Source: a virus | Direction: 5' to 3' (one strand) | Length of the DNA stretch: 64,000 nt | IMG/VR virus record: IMGVR_UViG_3300037010_001749 | Coordinates: 21,896 to 85,895 of that record | In this document: in pieces, positions 21,823-32,900 of the stretch | Numbering within the stretch: the stretch's first letter is position 1 | Layout of the letters: every line of letters starts with the position of its first letter | Notes under the pieces: model-generated | Told to the model about the DNA's origin: nothing | The model's database searches: none | What the model saw: the letters and a program-made list of their open reading frames with translations, nothing else | Position numbers and translations under genes: made by a program

Positions 21823-22115
21823 GCTTCGAACCCCGCCTGGAAGCCGAAGTAGGCGATGTCCACGTGGCCACGGCTGCAGAAGACCATGTCGAAGTCGCAG
21901 GGATTGACGAGGCCTTCGATGTACCCCTGCGCCTTCCGGTCTTCGCGCCAGGCTTTGGCCACTTCAGCCCGCGCCTTCTTCAGTGCAGCCAAGGCCTCGG
22001 TGTAGTTGTCGCCAGCCGGCACAGACACCAGTGCCACATGGAAGGGCCAGGCGTGCACCCAGTCGGGCGGGAACCTGTAGTGGAGCACCACCGTCCAGGG
22101 CTTGCTGGCCCTCAC
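21819..22115 (-). CDS. Hypothetical protein
   Basis: GTGA coupling. Confidence 0.55.
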   Translation of the reverse strand: MRASKPWTVVLHYRFPPDWVHAWPFHVALVSVPAGDNYTEALAALKKARAEVAKAWREDRKAQGYIEGLVNPCDFDMVFCSRGHVDIAYFGFQAGFEA

Positions 22116-22305
22116 GACAGCGTCTCCGACTTAGCCTCTTCACCCAGGGCGCGCAACGTGGTGGCCAGCAAGGTACTGGCACGGATCGGGCTCATGCCCG
22201 AGGCGATGAGCAGGCGCTTCGCGTCCTGCATGGCCTGCAGCCCCTGTAGATTGGTCTGGCGCACGGCACTGCTGAAGGTGCGGATGATTTCGTGTTCGAT
22301 ATCGT

Positions 22306-22542
22306 TCAAACGTCTTCCTTAGGGTTGGGGAAAGGCTTGCGCTCCAAGGGGAACGAGGCTAGTCGGATCTGGCCCATGCCCTTGCGAATGTAAATATGCT
22401 GGCGGTGATCAAAACGAAAGGCCAGCATGTCACTGGCCAGGTTGGCCTTCAGGATCGCCAAGTCTTCGGTGTGATAGAACGCCCATCGGGCGGCCTTGAT
22501 GGCGCGGCCAAGGTCGCGCCAGGTCTAGCGCAGCGGGGTCAC
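22306..22542 (-). pseudogene. Small ORF with an in-frame TAG at codon 6
   Basis: Coupled GTG start, TAG at 22525-22527, frame open afterwards to TGA at 22306. Confidence 0.45.
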
Positions 22543-22700
22543 CCCACCACCGCCATGTCGCGCTCGCAAGTATTGAACTCCAGCCCGTGCTCCACGGCTA
22601 GGTCTTCGGCCTTCTGCAGAGCATCCTGCTCCGACTCGGCTTCGATTTCCACCATCGTGGCGTACGTCTCCGTGACGGCCACTTTGTACATTTTGGTCAT
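22539..22700 (-). CDS. Small acidic protein, 53 aa
   Basis: MTKMYKVAVTETYATMVEIEAESEQDALQKA. Confidence 0.6.
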   Translation of the reverse strand: MTKMYKVAVTETYATMVEIEAESEQDALQKAEDLAVEHGLEFNTCERDMAVVG

Positions 22701-22715
22701 GCTATTGTCTCTAGA

Positions 22716-22733
22716 TTAGCTCGAACGTTATGC
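22716..22733 (+). other. Truncated attC (L'/R' half), left edge of the array
   Basis: TTAGCTCGAAC GTTATGC; 22716-22737 is identical to 25019-25040. Confidence 0.8.
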
Positions 22734-22849
22734 GCCTGTCTCGGAATGGGTGAGCTTCACCGCATGCCAAGTGCCTAAAACCTCGTCTGCCGCCGTCAGC
22801 CAGTCTTGCGGCAGCGGGTGCGCTTCAGCAGGGCCAGCGCAGCGGCACC

Positions 22850-23563
22850 CTACTCCACCGGGTTCACTGCGCTTCGCGCAATCTCAATGAGCAAGTCTCG
22901 GAACTCAGGCGGTGTACCGTTGCGGATCGCAGTCTTATCCTTGCCGCCCACCATCGCCATCATTCCAATGCGCCGCGCTTTCGCGTATCCGGGCAACTCC
23001 ACGGCGCGCGGGTGTAGCCGCTGCGGTGTCTTGCCCCAGCGCAGTTCGGGCAGCAGGCGCTTTTGCACGCCAGCCACAAGCAGCCATGTTCCTTTGCCGG
23101 CAAGGTGCCCGTAGTGGCCTTGGTACACGCAGCACGTCCACAAGCCTGGCGCGGCCTCAACCCACCCACCTTTGCGCGGCGGCTTCTTCAGCCTGAAGTA
23201 CGCCCACGCATGCGAGTCCATCGGGTGTTCAAGCACGCCACCGTTCAGACGCAGCGCCGCCAGTGCGGTAGCAAAACACCCATCGTCGGCGCCCAGCTTG
23301 TACTGGTGCGGCTTGCGCGTGCTGCCGTGCCAGAACCTGCCCCAGCGCTGGCAGGGCAGGTGCGCCACTACCGGGTGCGGGCCTGCATAGGTACGGGCAT
23401 CGCGGGCTTGGTCCCACGGGTCAACGCCCGGCACGCCTACATAGCAGCCCTTCGGCTCAACGTAGAGGGCCGCCACCGTACGGAAGCTCTCCACCTGGCG
23501 CATAACCCCTCGCACAAGCTGAGAGCCAACGGCGGGTGTAATGGGTGCTTCAGGTTTGGTCAT
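22850..23563 (-). CDS. Cassette ORF: divergent C5 DNA methyltransferase-like protein
   Basis: VAALYV..., VVAHLPCQRWG (PC motif), VLEHP; start codon inside attC. Confidence 0.55.
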   Translation of the reverse strand: MTKPEAPITPAVGSQLVRGVMRQVESFRTVAALYVEPKGCYVGVPGVDPWDQARDARTYAGPHPVVAHLPCQRWGRFWHGSTRKPHQYKLGADDGCFATALAALRLNGGVLEHPMDSHAWAYFRLKKPPRKGGWVEAAPGLWTCCVYQGHYGHLAGKGTWLLVAGVQKRLLPELRWGKTPQRLHPRAVELPGYAKARRIGMMAMVGGKDKTAIRNGTPPEFRDLLIEIARSAVNPVE

Positions 23564-23596
23564 GCCGTTGGTTCCAGCTTTGCTTGGTCATTAGGC
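23500..23596 (+). other. attC type A (97 bp), R' core mutated GTT>ATT
   Basis: GCATAAC CCCTC GCACAAGC...GCTTTGC TTGGTC ATTAGGC. Confidence 0.85.
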
Positions 23597-23784
23597 GGCT
23601 TGCGCAACTCGAACATCACAACCCGCCGCAGACCCAGGCGCCGCAGGTAGTCGGCGCTCGGGTTCACCTTCTCGCCATCACGCAGCCGCGACAGGTAGCC
23701 GCAGTCAATCTCGGTCACGCGGGCCACGGCGCGCAGGCTGCCGTGCTGCGAGACGAGTTGGTCAATGCGCTCTGCCAGCGTCAT
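23560..23784 (-). CDS. Cassette ORF: XRE-like HTH protein
   Basis: GSLRAVARVTEIDCGYLSRLRDGEKVNPS. Confidence 0.8.
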   Translation of the reverse strand: MTLAERIDQLVSQHGSLRAVARVTEIDCGYLSRLRDGEKVNPSADYLRRLGLRRVVMFELRKPPNDQAKLEPTA

Positions 23785-24125
23785 GACTGATACCCGGCCA
23801 GCGCGTTGGCTAGCGCGGCATCCGCTTCGCCGAGAAAATCGTCCGGCACAATGAACGACACCCACGCGGGAGCGTTCGGCGTTGCTGGATGCCTCGCGTA
23901 TTGCAAGAGCGTCGCAAGCAGCACGGCACAGCGCTTCGGCGCAGCCCGCACCAGCACTGCAAACCGCTCCAGGTGCTCCTGCGTCACGCCGTGGCAGCCT
24001 TCGCTGTACACGCACGAACCGCTGCCGTGGTTCAGCACGTTCACCATTCCAGCAGCCTCCACCAGCGGGCCTAACCCCTCTGTCGAGCCGAGTGCCAACG
24101 GCTGGCTGGTTTTGGTAGTGTTCAT
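23781..24125 (-). CDS. Cassette ORF: hypothetical protein
   Basis: AAGGAG RBS and ATG lie in the attC loop. Confidence 0.75.
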   Translation of the reverse strand: MNTTKTSQPLALGSTEGLGPLVEAAGMVNVLNHGSGSCVYSEGCHGVTQEHLERFAVLVRAAPKRCAVLLATLLQYARHPATPNAPAWVSFIVPDDFLGEADAALANALAGYQS

Positions 24126-24173
24126 CGTTGCTTCTCCTTGGCCGTTGTCACCGGCTCAACTCCAACGTTAGGC
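24069..24173 (+). other. attC type B (105 bp)
   Basis: GCCTAAC CCCTC TGTCGAGC...GCTCAAC TCCAAC GTTAGGC. Confidence 0.9.
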
Positions 24174-24174
24174 C

Positions 24175-24468
24175 TCACACCAGCCACGATGCAGCGGCAG
24201 CTTGGCGAGAGGCTGTGTCGCGTGCCTTGATGCCCGCCAACAAGTCGGCGGCCAGCAGCGGGTATTCGGCGGCGCACGATTCTACGTATGCGCGCAGGGC
24301 CGCCGCAGCGTGCTTATCATGCGTCAGGTCCAGCACAAAGTAAACGCAGCCGCAGTGCTTGCCGCCCGGCGCGCTACTGCCGTCCGTTCGCGTCACGTTG
24401 AATCTGCTGTACAGCCCACGATTCCTGTCACAGGGCATTGGCTCGCCGCACAGTTCACACTTGCTCAT
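24175..24468 (-). CDS. Cassette ORF: conserved phage protein (alternative GTG start at 24549 within attC)
   Basis: GLY..F.V.RTDG....GGKH..C.YFVLDL.HD.HA..AL.AY. Confidence 0.8.
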   Translation of the reverse strand: MSKCELCGEPMPCDRNRGLYSRFNVTRTDGSSAPGGKHCGCVYFVLDLTHDKHAAAALRAYVESCAAEYPLLAADLLAGIKARDTASRQAAAASWLV

Positions 24469-24491
24469 GCTTTTCCTCGCTCCGGCACCAG

Positions 24492-24592
24492 GCCGAACCA
24501 TTCGCACAAGCTGCGCCCCAACGGCGGGGCACAGCAACTCGGTAGGCACCGCCTGCGCGGCCGTTGGTGCCAGCTTTCCTCAATCGTTAGCC
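24492..24592 (+). other. attC (101 bp)
   Basis: GCCGAAC CATTC GCACAAGC...GCTTTCC TCAATC GTTAGCC. Confidence 0.88.
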
Positions 24593-24605
24593 AGCGCCAA
24601 AACCA

Positions 24606-24926
24606 TCACGCCGGCTCGTAGGTGGCTGCGAAGATGTCCGGTTTGCATGGATAGTGCTCGCCGGCCACGCCGCGAATGATCCAGTCGCCTGGGCTAGCGA
24701 CATGCTGGCCTTCAAGCGTCGGAACCATGATGTTGTTGTTGTGCCATTGCGCCAGCTCGCGCCCGATGGCGTGCTGTCCCTCGTTGATCCAGAGAATCAG
24801 CGCATAGCTACTTCCGTCGTTGCGGAACTGGCGTGCTTCAATCACGATAGGTTTCTTCCTGAAGCGCGTTGTCTGTTCGGTTGTTGCCGCGTCCAGCTCA
24901 TGGCCGGCGCTGAGAAATGTTTGCAT
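24606..24926 (-). CDS. Cassette ORF: PGDYG-like conserved phage protein
   Basis: FRKKP.VIEA.QF...TLEG...ASPGDWIIRGV.GE.YPCKPDIF..TYE. Confidence 0.85.
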   Translation of the reverse strand: MQTFLSAGHELDAATTEQTTRFRKKPIVIEARQFRNDGSSYALILWINEGQHAIGRELAQWHNNNIMVPTLEGQHVASPGDWIIRGVAGEHYPCKPDIFAATYEPA

Positions 24927-24966
24927 GACGGTTCCTTCTGTGTTGTGCCAGCATGGGTCGGGCGCT

Positions 24967-25036
24967 GGCTAACCCCTCGCTCAAGCGGATTTGCCACGGA
25001 GTACCATGTCAAACGCGCTTAGCTCGAACGTTATGC
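24967..25036 (+). other. attC type C (70 bp)
   Basis: GGCTAAC CCCTC GCTCAAGC...GCTTAGC TCGAAC GTTATGC; canonical extra base in L''. Confidence 0.93.
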
Positions 25037-25635
25037 GCCTTGAGGCACGCCACCATTTGCCGCGCCGACTGTCTCGCGTCCATCAACGGGTGGTGCGCCG
25101 GTAGTTCGTCCGGCAAGCGCTCGGTCAGTTCCAGCGCGTTGCCGCCCAGCGCCAGGATCACGCTTGCCAAGTCGTGCAGCGGGTACGGGCCTTGCCACTC
25201 GCGCTCGGCGTGGTTCAGCTTCACGCACGCGCTCAGAAAGTTGGCTTCCACCGGCCAAGCGCAGTCAGCCACCAGCACCGCGCCCTGGTCGGCCCAGCTT
25301 CGCCACTCATGCCAAAAGTGGTTCCGCAGGTGCTGCTTCGTTGGGCTTGTCACCGGCAGCGCCGGCACATGCTCGCCCACCCACAGCCGGCTTTCGGCGG
25401 TGCCGGTGCAGTCGGCGGGGTCGCAAGCAATGCAGCCTTCGTCCAGCCGCTCGCCTTCTCGGTTCACCACTACCCAGGCCACTGCAAAGCCCTCGCCATG
25501 CAGGCCAATGCTTTCCACGTCAAACACCATAAATTTGTCCATCACCATCCTCTCGTTTCTCGCTGCAGGCGCCGTAACACCTCGCACAAGCTGAGAGCCA
25601 ACGGCGGGTGTAGTGGGTGCTTCAGGTTTGGTCAT
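25009..25635 (-). CDS. Cassette ORF: DEDD 3'-5' exonuclease-like protein
   Basis: VFDVESIG...HHPLMDARQS; starts and stops inside attC sites. Confidence 0.75.
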   Translation of the reverse strand: MTKPEAPTTPAVGSQLVRGVTAPAARNERMVMDKFMVFDVESIGLHGEGFAVAWVVVNREGERLDEGCIACDPADCTGTAESRLWVGEHVPALPVTSPTKQHLRNHFWHEWRSWADQGAVLVADCAWPVEANFLSACVKLNHAEREWQGPYPLHDLASVILALGGNALELTERLPDELPAHHPLMDARQSARQMVACLKAHNVRAKRV

Positions 25636-25668
25636 GCCGTTGGCTCCAGCTTTGCTCGATCGTTAGGC
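25572..25668 (+). other. attC type A (97 bp)
   Basis: Near-identical to 23500-23596; ends GTTAGGC. Confidence 0.9.
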
Positions 25669-25968
25669 GCTTACCGCAGGGCCAGCAGGCAGCGGCATCC
25701 AGTGCGTCACACGTCTCACCAGCGCTGGCGGCAGCGGCCAGTTGTGCTGGTCCACCTCCCACCGAGGGCCCTCACCAGTAAGCCGGAACTTCGTGATGTG
25801 CGCGTGTCCAGGAGTCAGCCGGTCAAAGACCCCGCGGCGCCACACCAGCACGGTGGCGTTGTGACTGGGCAAGCGCTCGCCAGTCGGCACCCACGCGCAT
25901 AACCCCTCACTGCAACCGAGCCCCAACGGCTGGCCCGTGCTGCTGTCATCGGTAGTTTCAGTGGTCAT
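25663..25968 (-). CDS. Cassette ORF: DUF551-like protein
   Basis: W.P..ERLP...VLV...VTHWMPLP..P. Confidence 0.85.
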   Translation of the reverse strand: MTTETTDDSSTGQPLGLGCSEGLCAWVPTGERLPSHNATVLVWRRGVFDRLTPGHAHITKFRLTGEGPRWEVDQHNWPLPPALVRRVTHWMPLPAGPAVSA

Positions 25969-26016
25969 CGTGTTTCCTCTCGTGCCGTTGTGTCCGGCTC
26001 ACCTCGAACGTTAGGG
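25897..26016 (+). other. attC (120 bp)
   Basis: GCATAAC CCCTC ACTGCAAC...GCTCACC TCGAAC GTTAGGG. Confidence 0.85.
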
Positions 26017-26184
26017 CGCAGGGCCACGCTTGCGGTTCTCGCGGCGCTGCAACTTCGCTTCCAGCGCCCTGACCTCTGGCACGTACTCCGGGCGCACATG
26101 CACTGTCACCGCAGTGCGCCCGGATTCCTTGTGGCGCTGCCGCTCGTCGGCCTTGCGCTCTGCTGCTGTTTTCGCTGGGCTCAT
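26011..26184 (-). CDS. Cassette ORF: 57-aa basic protein, possible DNA-binding or antitoxin-like
   Basis: MSPAKTAAERKADERQRHKESGRTAVTVHVRPE...; ATGA-coupled; stop is the TAA in the R' site. Confidence 0.7.
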   Translation of the reverse strand: MSPAKTAAERKADERQRHKESGRTAVTVHVRPEYVPEVRALEAKLQRRENRKRGPAP

Positions 26185-26423
26185 GCCAGCGTGGCGCCGG
26201 CCGCTAGGTAGTGCGCCAGCTCGCTGTCCGGGATCGAAACGAACCTGTAGCCCATGCGGTGCGCAGTGGAGCCATCAGGAATGGTCACAACGCTGAACGG
26301 CTCACCCTTCATTTCGGCAATCTGCTTTGCGTAGGCACGCACTGGCTCGGCCTGCGAGTGGATCGGTTCCACTTGCAGGGCTGCGCGCTGGCGCTTCAGT
26401 GTCTTGGTCATCTCAGCTTGCAT
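26181..26423 (-). CDS. Cassette ORF: hypothetical protein
   Basis: AAGGAG RBS downstream of the cassette promoter. Confidence 0.7.
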   Translation of the reverse strand: MQAEMTKTLKRQRAALQVEPIHSQAEPVRAYAKQIAEMKGEPFSVVTIPDGSTAHRMGYRFVSIPDSELAHYLAAGATLA

Positions 26424-26462
26424 CTCTTGCTCCTTCTGCTGCACTGTAGCCGCAGTGGCTAC

Positions 26463-26491
26463 AGTATCGCTCATCGTGACACGTCACGCAA
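26463..26491 (-). promoter_or_regulatory. Sigma70-like promoter with overlapping palindromic operator inside a cassette
   Basis: TTGCGT-17bp-GATACT; CGTGAC-GT-GTCACG dyad overlaps the -35 and spacer. Confidence 0.7.
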
Positions 26492-26506
26492 GCATTCTCG
26501 CGTGCG

Positions 26507-26612
26507 CCCTAACCCCTCGTTGCAACCGAGCCCCAACAGGCTGCGGTCAGTTGTGGCCTTTCGGCCTGCTTATGCACGGCCTGTTGGGGCCGGCTGAACT
26601 CGAACGTTAGGC
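26507..26612 (+). other. attC type D (106 bp)
   Basis: CCCTAAC CCCTC GTTGCAAC...GCTGAAC TCGAAC GTTAGGC. Confidence 0.92.
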
Positions 26613-26911
26613 CCTTCAATGCCGCGAGCAATCTTGCTGGCGGCATTCCGCGCGTTCACCGTCACGCCGTCAGCGTGCGTCTCGCCCCAGCGGCGGGCAA
26701 TGGCGGCGCAGCGTGCGCGCTCGGCGGCCACGGCCTTGTCAATGCGCCACTGCACATGCGCCGGGCTTGACCAATGGCCGCACTCGGCGGGGTCATCGTT
26801 TGTGCCGCAGATTGTCATGGTCAGGTATTGGCCCTCGCGCTGCGGTGGCAGCGGGCCTAACCCCTCTGTCGAGCCGAGTGCCAACGGCTGGCTGGTTTTG
26901 GTAGTGTTCAT
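26570..26911 (-). CDS. Cassette ORF: hypothetical phage protein
   Basis: AVAAERARCAAIA motif; starts and stops in attC sites. Confidence 0.75.
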   Translation of the reverse strand: MNTTKTSQPLALGSTEGLGPLPPQREGQYLTMTICGTNDDPAECGHWSSPAHVQWRIDKAVAAERARCAAIARRWGETHADGVTVNARNAASKIARGIEGPNVRVQPAPTGRA

Positions 26912-26959
26912 CGTTGCTTCTCCTTGGCCGTTGTCACCGGCTCACATCGATCGTTCGGT
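26855..26959 (+). other. attC type B (105 bp)
   Basis: Near-identical to 24069-24173; ends GTTCGGT. Confidence 0.88.
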
Positions 26960-26966
26960 GTGTTGC

Positions 26967-27197
26967 TCACCGCGAGCAACCCAAATGCTTGCCGTCGCTC
27001 GTCATGCGTGGCGTGAGTCCGCCGGCCGAAGTGCGCAGATACTGGCACCCGGTCAGCGCGTCGGTGCTGGGCACCAAGCCGCTGCGGGCGCCCCACGCGC
27101 CGGGGTCCGTGTCATCGCGCCCAATGGGCAGCAGGCCCACAACCAGCATCATGGCCACGCCAATCAGCAGGTACTTCCCGCACCAGCGGGCGAACAT
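26967..27197 (-). CDS. Cassette ORF: membrane-anchored DUF6440-like protein
   Basis: TM helix then D.TD...RSGL...TD.LTGCQYL....GGLTPR...DG. Confidence 0.75.
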   Translation of the reverse strand: MFARWCGKYLLIGVAMMLVVGLLPIGRDDTDPGAWGARSGLVPSTDALTGCQYLRTSAGGLTPRMTSDGKHLGCSR

Positions 27198-27218
27198 TTT
27201 TGCTTCTATCAACGACAC

Positions 27219-27324
27219 GCCTAACCCCTCGTTGCAACCGAGCCCCAACAGGCTGCGGTCAGTTGTGGCCTTTCGGCCTGCTTATGCACGGCCTGTTGGG
27301 GCCGGCTGAACTCGAACGTTCGGC
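27219..27324 (+). other. attC type D (106 bp)
   Basis: Near-identical to 26507-26612; ends GTTCGGC. Confidence 0.9.
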
Positions 27325-27325
27325 A

Positions 27326-27628
27326 TCAATACCGGCTTTCGAGTTTCGCCAGCGCCGCTTTGATGATCGACTGCATCACCTCATCGGTCATGTGCTTGGC
27401 CATTGCGTCCTTGATGCCGGTTTCCAGCAGCGGCGCGTAGGTGGCCAGCACTTCCTTTTCGATCAGTTCGCGCACGTACCGCTTGACGACATCATCGAAT
27501 GGGTTGTTGTAGCTCTTGGACAGTTCAGCGATGCTGCGCTGAACGGCACCCTTCACTACTTCACCGATCTGGCTGTCCATCACAGTCTTGGCGATGAACT
27601 CGTTAATTTGCTGCGGGGTCAGTTCCAT
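27326..27628 (-). CDS. Cassette ORF: helical hypothetical protein
   Basis: AAGGA RBS; fills its cassette. Confidence 0.8.
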   Translation of the reverse strand: MELTPQQINEFIAKTVMDSQIGEVVKGAVQRSIAELSKSYNNPFDDVVKRYVRELIEKEVLATYAPLLETGIKDAMAKHMTDEVMQSIIKAALAKLESRY

Positions 27629-27651
27629 GTCGTTTCCTTCTGTGCGTTGAT

Positions 27652-27756
27652 GCCGAACTGGCAGTTCAAGCAGAGCCCCAACGGCGGCCTGCTTTTGTGG
27701 TTAAAAACTCCGGCGTCCGTGGCGCCGTTGGTACCTGCTTAACCTAAACGTCAGCC
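27652..27756 (+). other. attC (105 bp), R' core GTT>GTC
   Basis: GCCGAAC TGGCA GTTCAAGC...GCTTAAC CTAAAC GTCAGCC. Confidence 0.88.
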
Positions 27757-27792
27757 GGCACCAATACCCTCGGTGCCGGCATACTCGTGTTG

Positions 27793-28071
27793 TCAGAACG
27801 TGGTGGGCTGCGCAATGCCGCGAATCAACTTCATGAAGCCCACTTGCAGGTCAGTGGCTCCCATGCTGACCCACCGCTGGTCAAGGTCCAGTGACAGCGG
27901 CCTGCCATCGGCCACAGGCGTATCGGTGCGCGTGATGTCAGGGTGTTGACGCAGTTTCGCCACAAAAGCGCCGCACTGCTCGGCCAGCGCCTTGCCCTCG
28001 TTCATCAGCGCTACTTCAGCACCGCTCAGTTGACGGTAGCCCGTCACTTTCGGTTGAATCATCGTTTCCAT
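27793..28071 (-). CDS. acb2: Cassette ORF: Acb2-family anti-CBASS cyclic oligonucleotide sponge
   Basis: KVTGYRQLS..E..LMN..K and RW..MG.TDLQ.G.M..IR.IAQP..F match the Acb2 termini; 92 aa. Confidence 0.88.
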   Translation of the reverse strand: METMIQPKVTGYRQLSGAEVALMNEGKALAEQCGAFVAKLRQHPDITRTDTPVADGRPLSLDLDQRWVSMGATDLQVGFMKLIRGIAQPTTF

Positions 28072-28111
28072 GTGGTTCCTTAAGTTGCATGCCAGCGTTG
28101 GTGCGGGTGCT

Positions 28112-28181
28112 GGCTAACCCATCGCTCAAGCGGATTTGCCACGGAGTACCAAGTCAAACGCGCTTAGCTTGAACGTTCGGT
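28112..28181 (+). other. attC type C (70 bp)
   Basis: Near-identical to 24967-25036; ends GTTCGGT. Confidence 0.92.
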
Positions 28182-28415
28182 CCGTTCATTCGCCACCGCC
28201 ACTGCATCAAGCACACCCGGCTTCATCGCCAGTTCCAGCAGGCTGCCCATCATGCGCTTGCCGTGCGCCCGGTTGGCATCCAGTAGATCGATGTACTTCT
28301 TGCGATACTGGTGAAGTTCTTCGTTTTCCTCGCGCAGCCGCTCTAGTTCGTGATGCATGTCCAGCACGTCGGCGGCCATCTGCACAGCCAGGGGCACTTT
28401 GTAGTCTCGCCTCAT
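28164..28415 (-). CDS. Cassette ORF: coiled-coil hypothetical protein
   Basis: GGAG RBS; stop inside attC. Confidence 0.75.
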   Translation of the reverse strand: MRRDYKVPLAVQMAADVLDMHHELERLREENEELHQYRKKYIDLLDANRAHGKRMMGSLLELAMKPGVLDAVAVANERTERSS

Positions 28416-28434
28416 CTCGTTTCTCCACCAACGG

Positions 28435-28470
28435 GCCTAACCCGTCGCTCAAGTTGAGAGCCAACGGCGC
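28435..28470 (+). other. Truncated attC (R''/L'' half), right edge of the array
   Basis: GCCTAAC CCGTC GCTCAAGT TGAGAGCCAACGGC; no right arm. Confidence 0.8.
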
Positions 28471-28482
28471 CAGCAGGCACCG

Positions 28483-29394
28483 TCATGCCGCCTCCTTAGC
28501 CTTGAGGAGGCCCAGTTGGTGGGCGATACCTTCGATCTCATCGAAGGCGATGTCATGGCAGCCGACCACGATATTGCCGTTGGTGCAGATCTTCGTCAAC
28601 TCGTAGTGACCCAAGGTCATGCCTACCTCGTAGTCCTTCTTGCCCTTCATGACGCGCTGGATGACCGGCCAGAGCTTCTTCGCGTCTTCGACGGGGATGC
28701 TGGCGTGGCGGCTGGTCTGGATCATGAACGACGGCAAGTCCAGCCGCAGCATCGTCGGAAGATCCCGGCTGAGCGCTGGGCTCCCACTCCGCCGCCAGGC
28801 TGTAATGGCGACGGCCTGCAGCCTCCGAAAGGCCTTGGCCTGCGACACTGCGCGGCGTTTCTCCGAGACGGCTTTCTTGGCCAGGTGCTCGCGGTGCTGC
28901 TCCGGGCTCCACGTCGCCGCATCGATCGGCTTGATACGGGCCTTGTGCTTCAGCAGCTTCGCAAACTGGTTGAAGTCGGCGGTGATCTGCGCCGCTTGGC
29001 TGAGGTAGACAGGCCGATTGCCGTCGGCCTTGGCGCGTAGGGCCTTGGCCAGCAGGTTGTCGACGAGGGCCTGAGTGCCTTCCGTGTCCGGCGCGTCGTG
29101 CTCCGGGTTCAGCACGGACACCTGCTTCAGGTGCCTGGTGGCGTGTCGTGCCTCCCAGACGTGCCTGTTTGTCGTGGAAGAATTCTTCTCCAGGTTGATG
29201 GCCACCCAGCCGCCGGGTAAGTGGCGACCGATGCAGTAGTGCTTGCCGTAGCTGTAGAAGTAGTCGCCTTCGACGAAGGCCTGGATGACGCGGCCGCCGT
29301 TCATGCCGGGACGCTCGGGCATCCGAGCTTCAGCCTGCCGTTTGTGGGCCCAGATGTGGGCCAGTTCTTCCGAGTGGTTGTACACCGTCTTCAT
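28483..29394 (-). CDS. Conserved phage early protein, 303 aa
   Basis: AH.WA...YSYG.HY.I...S.TT..H; GCH.I...EI. Confidence 0.8.
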   Translation of the reverse strand: MKTVYNHSEELAHIWAHKRQAEARMPERPGMNGGRVIQAFVEGDYFYSYGKHYCIGRHLPGGWVAINLEKNSSTTNRHVWEARHATRHLKQVSVLNPEHDAPDTEGTQALVDNLLAKALRAKADGNRPVYLSQAAQITADFNQFAKLLKHKARIKPIDAATWSPEQHREHLAKKAVSEKRRAVSQAKAFRRLQAVAITAWRRSGSPALSRDLPTMLRLDLPSFMIQTSRHASIPVEDAKKLWPVIQRVMKGKKDYEVGMTLGHYELTKICTNGNIVVGCHDIAFDEIEGIAHQLGLLKAKEAA

Positions 29395-29645
29395 GCGATG
29401 AGTCCTCGTTGTCTTGCGTACTCGACCAGATGGGGTTGCCACTCAGCTTCGCTGTTGGCTGACCGACTATTGAAGCCGGCGAGGCGTGGAGCGGTCAGGT
29501 AACCCGACTCGATCTCCTCGTTGATGGCCTCGACATCAAGGCTGAAAATCTCGCGCCCCCTCGGGGTGCTGAGGCTGGCGTATCCGTCGCCTCGTTCAAA
29601 CCACACGCTGGCCACGTACTCGTGGTCAGCGATCTTCTTTGCCAT
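29391..29645 (-). CDS. Hypothetical protein
   Basis: TAAGGAG RBS. Confidence 0.7.
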   Translation of the reverse strand: MAKKIADHEYVASVWFERGDGYASLSTPRGREIFSLDVEAINEEIESGYLTAPRLAGFNSRSANSEAEWQPHLVEYARQRGLIA

Positions 29646-29709
29646 GGCGGCTCCTTAGGGCTAGAGAACCCGGCCGATGCGGTCCTGGCCTTTGATCTTG
29701 ATGGCCATG

Positions 29710-29985
29710 TCAGTACAGGTTCTCGCTGTACAGCGTCCCATCGTTGGCATCGTCGCCACCGCAGCGGCGGACGATCTGGCCTGCCGCTTCGGCAACCTTC
29801 CAGGCCACCGTCCGAGACATGAACACACCGTGCTGGTCGATGAAGCCCTGCTCCTCTTTCGGGTCATGCGGAGTGAAGGCCTGCACGAGTCGCCACTGGT
29901 CGCGCATCACCAGGTCCCAGTGCCGGGCGCCGACCAGCATGTGGTAGTCGCCGATCTTGGTGGCCGCGCAAACGACGCGTCTCAT
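29710..29985 (-). CDS. Conserved small phage protein
   Basis: G.RH.D...EQGFIDQ.G.F.SR..A..VA..AGQ...LYSENLY. Confidence 0.8.
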   Translation of the reverse strand: MRRVVCAATKIGDYHMLVGARHWDLVMRDQWRLVQAFTPHDPKEEQGFIDQHGVFMSRTVAWKVAEAAGQIVRRCGGDDANDGTLYSENLY

Positions 29986-32900
29986 CGCACACCTGACAGG
30001 TTCTCGTACTCTTCGACGCCCATGATGACGCACTCGATGACAGCCAGGCCGTCTCGAAGCCACATCGGGCACTCGCGCTTGGCCTGCTGCCCGTCTTCCT
30101 CCGTCAGGTGGAACTGGTTCGCACCCTTCTCGAAGCCCAGCGGCTTGCCGGCGCGATCCTTCTGCATGGCCACCCACACTTGAGTCGGCGCCGTCACTTC
30201 AGCACACCTGCAATCTTGGCGTACTTCTCGAGCAGTTCCGGGAACGCATCTTCGATGCGCCGGATGCTGTCGTCGTCAGCCACGAGGTAGGCCTCGGCCA
30301 ACTTGGCGGCGAACCCTCCGCCGTAGGCTCGCATCACCCGGATGATGTCCAGGCGGTCGTTCAGTTCGTAGTGCATGACGCCTCCTTAGCGCTGAGGAGC
30401 CAAGGTATAGAAGCGGACCGCCGCATCGCGGCGCCAGGCATCCAGCAGTTCACCGTCAGCGCCGGGATACTTCTGGACCTTGTCGCCCACCCAGGCCCGC
30501 TGCAGGTTCTCCTTCAGACGTTCCGCCTGAACTGGGTCAGCAAAGCGCGACACCGTGAGCAACTCGTTGGGCGGGTCGCACACGACGGTGTACAGCGTCG
30601 GGTGGTAGAGCGGCGGGATACCCGCCTTCTGCTGATGCCACGTGCTCAAGCTCGATCCTCCTTAGCGTTGAGGGCGTTGGCGATAACCTGGGCCTGCCCC
30701 ATGCCGGAGCACTCGCAGACGACCTGGTTTCCGTACCAGTCGTCGCCTGCCTCTCGTGCGTACGGCGGCGGGTCGATGTTCGTGTCCACCACTGAGGCAT
30801 CAAAGCAGCAGGCATGGCCGAGGATGCTGCGCTCCACAGCCTTGTACCGCGGCGTCATGTCACCTCCCGCAAGGTGGCCTTGTCGCGCAAGTCAGCACGC
30901 CACTGCTCGGCCCAGCTGGTCAAGTCTGGGATGTGCTCACGGACAAGCTCGCACACCATGTCCGCGAAGTAGCCTGCGGCGCAGCGCTGCCAGAACTCAT
31001 CGGCGTTGCCGTAGCAACACGCGCCCAGGCTTTCCTCGCCCAGCATCTCGCCACGGTGCCATAGGCTCACGTCGGCGTTGAACCAGGCGAAGTCCTCGAT
31101 CTCGCGGTACTGCTGCGGCGTCCACCCGCACTCCTTCACGAAATGCCGGTGCATGCTGACCGACTCTTCCGGAGGAGCATCGAAGCAAATCATGTAGTCG
31201 GTGCCAGGGATCACAAGCACTGGTTTCATTTCTGCCTTTCAGCGAGGCCAGAGGCTGCGGCGGCTTCCGCATGCTCCAGCGAACCCAGGTAGCTGCGGCC
31301 TTCAATGGCGCGCAGTTCGGTCAGGCGGTCGCCCAACTCCTTAGCCCTGAGGAATTCGTCCCCGGCCAGCCGGCTGCCCAGCGCCTTCAGGATCAGCAGT
31401 GTGTCGAACTTGTTGAGTTCGAAGATCCAGTTGGGCTTGAGGTGCAGTTGCGGCTTGTCGATTCGTTCACCGTTCATCGGCTATCCCTCATCTTGTCCAC
31501 GTTGAAGCGCTTGATCCAGCGCTCGATGATCGTGTCGCACACGCCCAGGCCATCCAGCAGCCCATCGAGGTCTTCCGCACGCAGGCATAGGCTGACGTGC
31601 CCGTAACTCTCGTGGCTTTCGATACCCCGCTCCGGATCACCCTTGAACGCCTCGTCGAGCATGTCAATCAGCTGAGTGACGTAGTAGCCACCTGGCTGCT
31701 GATTGCGCTCTTCGGCGTCACGCAGCACAAACTCCAGCCGGTGCCCATGCCAGGTCTTGACGTTGAGCCAGCCGTCGACGTGGGTCAGCTCAGCATAGAT
31801 GTCGTCGTCGTCGCTCACAGCTTCTCCGCCACCAAGCCAGCGAGCATCGTGCGCATGGCCTGGGTGTAGCCCATCAGGTAGAGATCGCCGTTCTCCTTAG
31901 CGTTGAGTATGATGTTGTCCAGGCCCTGGAACATCGATTCGATGCGGTAGTCATCGACTAGCCGGTTGCGCCGTCGGCGGTCAGGCCGCTCGATCCCTTG
32001 ATTGTCGGTGTAGTAGTCCATGTCAGGTCTCCACGATTCGTGCGTCCCAGCCGTAGGCGATACTCTCGCCTCCCTTGGACAGCATGTTGAACATCTGCTT
32101 GATGTCATCGAGCACGTCATTTGGGTCACGCAGCATCTCGCCTTCCTCGGACGGGAGAAGCGTGACCATGATGTGCACGGGCTTCGCCCGCGGCTCGCCA
32201 TCATCGGGGCCATCGGCCCCGGCACGCTCGAAAGGCTCGTGGCTGTCGCAGCCGTCGTCGTACTCTTCAGGGAGCATCAGCTTTCCTCGGGTGCAGCGTA
32301 GAGCTGCTCAACGACAAGGTCCTGGGGCCGGGCCAGCGGCGGTTGGGTGTAACGCCAATGTTGCGACTCATCGGAGTTCTTCCAGAACCAGCGCGTGCCT
32401 GCGTAATACGTCAAGGGGCTCGCCTGAAAGGCGGCCTGCAGCATTGCTCCATAACCATCTTCTTCAACCGCCTCCATGGCGTCGAGCATCGCTCGTGTCG
32501 CCACGGTGGGCACCAGCTTCCAGTGGGTCACAGGTCCACCTCGCGCCCATCGGGCATGATCAGCGTGGTCTCGGTGCTGATACCGAGCACCGCGTCGAGG
32601 ATCTTGAGGCTGTAGCTGGGCAGGGCCGGCGCCACGAGATTTTCGAGCGTCTCGTGCAGGGTTTCCACGTGGTCGTCCTGGTTGGGGTCGAAGTCGTCGG
32701 GCACTTCGACCTCGAACGTCTCGCGCTCCCAGACGGCCTGGTCGCGTTGGATTCGGATCTTCATTCAATGCCTCCAAACAAAGCCGTCTTCGGTGAGGAA
32801 GCCGCCGCCGATGCCACGTTCGGTGTAGGCGCCTTGCAGGGCGTACTCGAGGACGTCAAGCTGGGTGAGTCTCACCGCCCGGCTCCTTCGCGTCCTGGTA

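Follow-up and report, generated by a model that had tools for sequence, protein, structure and literature searches.

Inverted attC cassettes in a phage genome, with candidate translation start signals in the loops of their recombination sites

Integron cassettes are promoterless genes read from one promoter and in one orientation, and the usual view of attC sites is that they serve recombination alone, with weak termination as their only other suggested role. Cassettes that are inverted and bring their own promoter are a minority in chromosomal integrons. We analysed a stretch of 64,000 nucleotides (the window) that corresponds to bases 21896–85895 of a linear 85.9-kb IMG/VR virus contig from a microbial mat (IMGVR_UViG_3300037010_001749, 71% complete) and that holds, at 22692–28486, an array of attC sites lying between small minus-strand genes. 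The contig has PHROG matches to DNA polymerase, primase, helicase, large terminase, portal and major head protein, and is that of a real phage. An initial annotation of this stretch had proposed that the sites double as translation-initiation modules and encode shared protein ends.

Integrase-less clusters of attC sites (CALINs) are already known from phages. In one report, 17 phage CALINs without intI were described, each required to have at least two attC sites; phage attC sites were shown to be recombined by IntI1, and cassettes pointing in the same direction were described as typical (Qi et al. 2023, PMC9892861). The array resembles these clusters in having attC sites and cassettes in a phage genome without intI, but differs in its 11 full and two half sites (S0 to S12, left to right), in the inversion of all its genes, and in sites that bear translation signals. 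The main text of that report contains no mention that we could find of bottom-strand genes, loop Shine-Dalgarno (SD) sequences or loop start codons, and its supplementary tables may hold orientation details. Our literature search found no description of inverted phage cassettes or loop-borne starts.

We regard ORF-11/17/18 of attI1 in class 1 integrons (described by Hanau-Bercot 2002, as cited in the review PMC8876359) as the closest functional analogue. As that review presents it, this recombination site also has its own SD sequence and ATG, and its short open reading frame (ORF) crosses the crossover point, takes its stop from the 7-bp core, and either assists the following gene through coupling or is fused with it. 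That element lies in attI, on the top strand, and serves the first cassette only, whereas the signals described here lie in the attC loop, on the bottom strand, and are carried by the individual cassettes. Inverted own-promoter cassettes of chromosomal integrons, for example toxin-antitoxin cassettes (PMC8876359), likewise have genes antisense to their array, but in the phage the inversion extends to the entire array, a scan revealed no sigma-70-like promoter, and the translation signals come from the site.

We consider it probable that the phage carries here a cluster of genuine integron attC cassettes without an integrase, with all genes on the bottom strand and with the loops of about half of the long phage sites supplying an SD sequence and an ATG. 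The anatomy of the repeats is that of attC. Inverse cores, R'' (RYYYAAC) and R' (GTTRRRY), stand at the ends of all 11 full sites, with departures at S1 (R' ATTAGGC, lacking the GTT), S10 (R' GTCAGCC) and S5 (R'' CCGTAAC). In the L stem, 10 of 19 pairs show compensatory change across nine sites. One or two extra bases (A or C) occur on the 5' arm of the + strand, equivalent to T or G on the 3' arm of the minus strand; extra-helical bases on the arm opposite 5'-AAC have been described as a mark of the attC bottom strand (Nivina 2016, PMC5027507). The minus strand folds better than the + strand in 10 of the 11 sites, the exception being S1. A covariance model built from nine window sites gave 82–110 bits on the + strand versus 19–29 on the minus strand (S1, for example, 91.8 versus 23.9), and nothing else in the window matched it. 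The match between the R' of one site and the R'' of the next was dropped as evidence of polarity, since both polarities predict it.

Relatives of these sites were collected with an exact 17-base pattern from the left arm of the window sites and then with the covariance model. The pattern occurred in 33 viral loci. Genome loci with the pattern numbered at least 120 and came mostly from Rubrivivax, Aquabacterium, Hydrogenophaga and other Burkholderiales; in many of them it recurs several times within a few kilobases. For the bacterial control, all 120 genome loci were scanned and the best 150 of 197 second-batch matches were counted. Bacterial sites scored up to 88 bits with the window model. 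An IntI above the TIGR02249 cut-off was present in four of the five genomes tested, and in L158 and L159, the two intI loci with a site, the sites read away from intI; the approximately 4-kb intI loci L160, L161 and L163 contained none. By these matches, the window sites belong to the attC family of the chromosomal integrons of Rubrivivax-like Burkholderiales. The sedentary chromosomal integrons of these bacteria have sites of the same sequence and structure family as the phage and IntI beside their arrays, but their sites differ in being mostly 132–138 nt long and in having genes on the top strand.

Because the bacterial genes lie on the strand matched by the covariance model and the sites read away from intI, polarity could be anchored on canonical integrons. 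Extra-helical bases, fold stability, the bacterial coding strand and the position of intI are four independent criteria, and since all of them agree, the + strand is read as the top strand. On this evidence the window repeats are true attC sites of the integron type, and all phage genes run opposite to them, as the initial annotation had stated. In the contig, which is 71% complete, no tyrosine recombinase matched PF00589 or TIGR02249, and no attI was found, though no search aimed at it was made; the array is CALIN-like for lack of such a gene. It is very improbable that the repeats are instead a phage-specific hairpin that only looks like attC and serves the stability or processing of RNA or a different recombinase. 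Such a hairpin would fit a contig without IntI, a gene polarity opposite to that of integrons and the terminator-like hairpin in one loop (S10), but not the occurrence of the same family, by exact pattern and by covariance model, in arrays adjoining intI in Burkholderiales genomes, the extra-helical bases and spacer asymmetry that fit attC, or the homology between cassettes that breaks at the GTT of R'.

Cassette orientation, called from GC content at third codon positions (GC3), differed between bacterial and phage arrays. Among 169 bacterial cassettes, 102 had the coding strand on top, 13 on the bottom and 54 were ambiguous. The corresponding numbers were zero, seven and three for the 10 window cassettes, and two, 54 and 27 for 83 cassettes on other viral contigs. 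The canonical arrangement of a gene on the top strand with attC downstream was thus found in none of the 10 window cassettes and in only two of the 83 viral ones. Judged by these calls, phage arrays are SYSTEMATICALLY inverted, a mirror image of the bacterial cassettes.

The viral loci are not close relatives of the window phage, because no backbone genes were common to them within the flanks compared, where only cassettes were shared. PHROG assignments of 10 flanking ORFs from 10 viral loci were terminase (2), tail (2), primase/helicase or helicase (2), RecE-like (1), an integrase other than IntI (1), a family of unknown function (1) and no match (1). A megablast search of 22600–28600 against 50,697 phage records gave no match. 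In locus L011, a phage-type tyrosine integrase (443–1501, + strand; phrog_1, not IntI by NCBIfam) lies about 800 nt from an inverted attC array, which means that inverted arrays occur in temperate phages too.

The sequence statements of the initial annotation on leaders, SD motifs, tails, the ATGA overlap and the two R' stops were all confirmed. Five full sites of the window open genes from their loops. The two type B sites, S2 (24069–24173; 109.8 bits) and S8 (26855–26959), are 95% alike over 110 nt, and the minus-strand loop of each has AAGGAG, 8 nt and an ATG (24123–24125 and 26909–26911). As the initial annotation had noted, the ORFs that they open, 23781–24125 and 26570–26911, both begin MNTTKTSQPLALGSTEGLGPL, and their bodies are unrelated (no BLASTP alignment). 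The type A sites, S1 (23500–23596) and S5 (25572–25668), are 90% alike and have minus-strand loop ATGs at 23561–23563 and 25633–25635, which give ORFs 22850–23563 and 25009–25635 the leader MTKPEAP(I/T)TPAVGSQLVRGV. The shared leader and the unrelatedness of the bodies (best E 0.57) stood, but the description of these two genes as enzymes is unsupported: comparison with PDB chains, NCBIfam and Pfam gave no family of known function. In S6 (25897–26016), the annotated SD sequence followed by ATG is present as GAGAGGA, 6 nt and ATG (25966–25968, minus strand). In type A, the SD-like bases are in the stem. A check for the leaders on further unrelated ORFs found the type A leader on L030:4640–4741 and the type B leader on P0039.

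Loop starts of this kind were common in phage sites and rare elsewhere. We counted an SD sequence 4–11 nt before an ATG that opens the frame of the gene, in long attC sites (90 nt or more) with identical sites removed. On the bottom strand, 34 of 72 distinct long viral sites had such a start, compared with 11 of 242 bacterial sites (Fisher p = 2e-16), a further respect in which the Burkholderiales sites differ. Top-strand controls gave three of 72 for viral and eight of 242 for bacterial sites. Within the window, four of the five loop starts pass this rule, S1 being the exception. Among the 34 viral starts, 29 are fused to a gene (at least 30 codons past the site), two open coupled upstream ORFs (uORFs) that end on a start codon, two run off the contig and one is of another kind; none stops inside the site. 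Loop sequences vary widely across the viral sites while the design of SD sequence and ATG is kept. By these counts, an SD sequence with ATG in the loop recurs within this attC family and is specific both to one strand and to phage sites.

The leaders are also mostly in the coding frame. Of 36 leader ORFs (five from the window and 31 viral), 30, including all five of the window, are read in whichever frame has the highest GC3, where one-third would be expected by chance (binomial p 9e-10), and in the other six GC is still lowest at codon position 2. When 39 leaders were sorted by the frame in which they read the R'' core, 14 were in frame 0 (...GV(R/M)...), 25 in frame 2 (...EGLG...) and none in the frame closed by TAG. 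In type B RNA folds, the AUG is unpaired in an open loop (z −5.0 for S2 and −2.0 for S8). The proposal of the initial annotation that the loop has been adapted for antisense starts is supported by the viral enrichment and by the frame bias. Since loop starts are enriched, leaders are in coding frame and the same leaders stand on unrelated ORFs, long adaptation is supported as a better fit to the sequences than accidental capture.

An alternative, which we regard as quite unlikely, is that leaders are untranslated and genes start downstream, with the loop SD sequence and ATG being a relic of origin, for example of an attC fused to a gene start. The junctions at both array ends (S0 and S12), which lie exactly at gene-start signals, would suit such an origin, and so would the downstream starts with good SD sequences in the genes of S2 and S5 (c2a and c5, discussed below). 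However, untranslated leaders would account poorly for the frame bias, for the absence of stops within the site and of the TAG frame, for loops that differ widely yet retain both signals, and for conserved residues upstream of the downstream starts.

Comparison with homologues shows that at least three window genes need their loop start; c1, c6, c8 and c2a are taken in turn. The gene of S1 (c1, 22850–23563, minus strand) encodes 237 residues, of which 20 are attC leader, and the alignment to phrog_12600 begins at residue 28. Its homologues in L005 and L006 likewise open in the loop of an attC site, and in the L006 copy the next in-frame ATG does not come before codon 75. The gene of S6 (c6, 25663–25968, minus strand) encodes a DUF551 protein of 101 residues that starts MTTETTDDSSTGQPLGLGCSEGL. 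Its alignment to the DUF551 profile begins at W26, ahead of the GTG at V27 that is the sole alternative start. The gene of S8 (c8, 26570–26911, minus strand) encodes 113 residues with the same 21-residue leader as c2a, and no SD-preceded alternative start was found for it.

The gene of S2 (c2a, 23781–24125, minus strand) encodes 114 residues with a 21-residue leader and is followed by an ATGA-coupled helix-turn-helix (HTH)-like gene (23560–23784). Its 38 relatives (P0002–P0039) share a common module, LVEAAGMVNVLNHG..., behind varied attC-type leaders, and many end in GPN... tails translated from the R' core. In proteins of this type, an N-terminal module of about 45 residues (LVEAAGMVNVLNHGSGSCVYSEGCHGVTQEHLERF...) has differing leaders in front and quite different C-terminal halves behind, which looks like a modular family built around the cassette junction. 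Relatives without an attC-loop start (L166, L167, P0016 and P0027) begin at least 13 residues upstream of the internal Met, and for this reason the source's call of 88 residues, 26 fewer than ours, is probably too short. We considered that the conservation of VEAAG before this Met might be due only to its GGAGG, but relatives in which the stretch is clearly internal argue against this.

Several observations weigh against the reading of the loops as general start modules. No loop start was found in 38 of the 72 long viral sites, nor in any short one. The viral set was ascertained through the window's own arm motif and covariance model, and it covers close relatives only; the GC3 strand call leaves about one-third of cassettes ambiguous. 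For type A sites, the SD-like GGAG/GGAA is paired in the stem instead of lying in the loop, and shuffled sequences fold as well as the RNA of S6 does (z +0.58). In the c1 relative of L006, an in-frame ATG or GTG with an SD sequence before it stands at codon 12, beyond the attC site, which leaves its loop start unforced. In c2a, the internal ATG stands behind GGAGG and was picked by the source's gene caller (P0001, 88 residues). The gene of S5 (c5, 25009–25635, minus strand; 208 residues) has its leader fused in frame and also, downstream of the loop start, its own GAGAGGA and ATG (MDKF). In the L007 relative, which is 88% identical, the leader is a separate 31-codon uORF ending TGATG on the MDKF start, and the fusion in the window coincides with a 1-nt difference, one extra base in the R'' of S5 compared with the L007 copy. 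This fusion looks like a 1-nt indel in R'', and because L007 keeps the leader as a separate uORF, a leader is not always part of the functional protein. Finally, insertion by IntI alone does not explain the half-sites at S0 and S12.

The S5 gene bears on an alternative that we consider unlikely, though less so than that of untranslated leaders: loop ORFs may be translated mainly as regulatory leader peptides, with ribosomes that load in the loop melting the hairpin and passing to the real start by termination and re-initiation, and with fusions as tolerated accidents of arm indels. Besides the L007 uORF and its fused window copy, a second coupled case occurs at L033:402–509, and ORF-11 of attI1 works by such coupling (PMC8876359, as that review reports it). 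In the window itself, the sixth and unfused loop-start case is a leader uORF of 24 codons (MTVPAGAVGSQLERRVRPVGGETR) at S12 (28412–28486, minus strand), which is linked on both sides through ATGA: its ATG shares bases with the TGA of gene 28483–29442, and its TGA does so with the ATG of gene 28164–28415. However, coupled uORFs make up only two of the 34 viral loop starts, against 29 fused, and several fused genes have no usable downstream start. Coupling may still be needed from the upstream ORF at type A sites, because their SD-like bases sit in the stem; the ORF upstream of the S1 start ends as ATGA on the loop ATG, and that upstream of the S5 start ends at the hairpin base.

Many gene ends also fall within the sites. 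Of 88 classifiable viral sites, 44 have the stop of the upstream gene in the R' core and 24 have it ahead of the site; in the other 20 it lies farther inside, five times with an ATGA overlap at the loop ATG. At 20 more sites, a clear upstream ORF was lacking. Two window ORFs take the TAA of an R' core as their stop, as first annotated: 25663–25968 in S5 (25663–25665) and 26011–26184 in S6 (26011–26013). The four ORFs reported to end within a neighboring attC site do so, with the tails quoted for them (...PNDQAKLEPTA, ...HNVRAKRV and ...ERTERSS among them). Their stops are at 23560, at 25009 (ORF 25009–25635, inside S4), at 26570 (ORF 26570–26911, 43 nt inside S7) and at 28164 (ORF 28164–28415, 18 nt inside S11). 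The first of these, at 23560–23562, overlaps the loop ATG at 23561–23563 as ATGA, which agrees with the coupling to the next gene that had been described.

On the bottom strand, the crossover separates AA from C in the R' core, which makes the core TAA the final triplet of the cassette to which the gene belongs. Tails that run past it are sequence of the neighboring cassette and so depend on cassette order. Alignment of window 24900–25720 with L007 8000–8860 shows these boundaries: the two are unalike in the left attC site and alike exactly from GTTATGC through the gene and R''/L'', the arms co-vary and the loops differ, and similarity ends after the next R' (25030–25668 in the window), beyond which the neighbors are different. 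The breakpoints are those expected of a cassette that is a mobile unit bounded between the G and the TT of successive R' cores. In an independent sediment run, Logan contig X3 joins the R' of S6 (26012) to 26976, just past the R' of S8, and lacks two cassettes; this is one contig and weak (depth 3.7, a side of 30 letters, with 19 slightly different letters between). Other joints between attC sites in Logan contigs were disregarded, as most have sides of only 18–31 letters and the contigs break at repeats.

These observations could be combined as follows. In the sense of the mRNA, a cassette runs from the last base of R' through the L' arm, the loop, the L'' arm, R'' and the gene body to the first six bases of the next R', and the hairpin thus precedes the gene to which it belongs. 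The loops of about half of the long phage sites have gained an SD sequence and an ATG. We infer that translation begins at this ATG and that the 3' arm is read as a leader of 15–30 residues, in one of the only two frames left open by the TAG of GTTAGGC, and that this leader either runs on into the gene as a fusion or ends on the gene's own start as a coupled uORF. The TAA of the R' core is often the stop of the gene, and genes in another frame run into the 5' arm of the neighbor, giving order-dependent tails and sometimes an ATGA on the next loop ATG. Each cassette would then be a self-contained translation unit in one long phage transcript, presumably shuffled by the IntI of the host.

Read-through transcription of the array would agree with the promoter scan of 22000–30000, which found no sigma-70-like site (shuffle mean 1.3) and fits such transcription. 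In the same region, 10 terminator-like sites were found, not above shuffles (7.2 ± 2.5). One GC hairpin followed by a T run, at 27711–27727 on the minus (coding) strand in the loop of S10 (27652–27756), is terminator-like and could split the transcript of the array.

Both ends of the array are half-sites fused at gene-start signals. At the left end, S0 (22692–22735) is the right half of an attC site, comprising a loop remnant, L' and R' (GTTATGC), and is 82% alike to the right half of S5. At the right end, S12 (28435–28486; 19.1 bits) is a left half (R'' and L'') joined to the phage's own TAAGGAGG motif. A 17-nt dyad of the CCTCCTTAGCNNTGAGG type occurs on the + strand at 28491–28507, 30381, 30657, 31336 and 31892, before early genes outside the array; it includes the SD sequence of these genes on the minus strand, and at S12 it stands in for the right half of attC. 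The remaining full sites, all on the + strand like the others, include S3 (24492–24592), S7 (26507–26612) and S9 (27219–27324), which have no loop start; S7 and S9 are 99% alike. S4 (24967–25036; 31.5 bits) is a short site of 70 nt with spacers of 5 nt on the left and 6 nt on the right and one extra C in the left stem, and S11 (28112–28181), also short, is 92% alike to it.

Some cassette genes have starts outside the sites. The gene at 24175–24471 (minus strand) has its own GAGGA and ATG outside S3. Gene c11 (27793–28071, minus strand), which also starts outside attC, carries the Acb2/Tad1 hairpin domain PF24729 at residues 11–88 (E 2.7e-12; 47.1 bits against a cut-off of 27) and looks like a counter-defence sponge; it matches phrog_717 as well. 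At S0, ORF 22539–22700 (minus strand) is DpnD/PcfM-like (PF14207, E 4.9e-6) and starts MTK at a loop-type ATG, with the domain beginning at residue 5, three codons after that ATG. Two cassettes (23560–24125 and 26011–26474, minus strand) hold two genes, an unknown small ORF and then an ATGA-coupled short basic or HTH-like protein; weak matches are to phrog_8 and phrog_536, both transcriptional regulators. This layout recalls that of anti-CRISPR and anti-CRISPR-associated (Acr-Aca) or toxin-antitoxin pairs. A Pfam search of most cassettes gave no function.

The wider meaning that we would attach to these results is tentative, and we hold it slightly more doubtful than not: phages of integron-bearing Burkholderiales may keep their own mirror-image cassette pool, in which the attC hairpin has been rebuilt as a plug-in expression module (SD sequence, start codon, leader and stop) and which carries counter-defence genes, such as the Acb2/Tad1 relative, and reshapes protein ends. 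Likely hosts are Rubrivivax, Aquabacterium or related Burkholderiales that have a chromosomal integron. If the pool exists, a cassette dropped by the host's IntI into a transcribed phage array would be translated at once, whereas the same cassette in a bacterial integron would be antisense to the Pc promoter and silent. Protein ends would be reshaped both by order-dependent C-terminal tails and by the placing of one conserved N-terminal module on many C-terminal halves. There are practical consequences as well, since gene callers probably mis-start such genes, as with c2a, and surveys in the style of IntegronFinder that expect top-strand genes may overlook such arrays. In phages, the opposite strand of attC sites would supply genes with their translation starts, part of their coding sequence and their stop codons, so that proteins are assembled across a recombination site in nature. 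This would imply a separate phage cassette pool, exchanged among unrelated phages probably via the integrase of the host, and would be a new route to rapid turnover of phage accessory and counter-defence genes.

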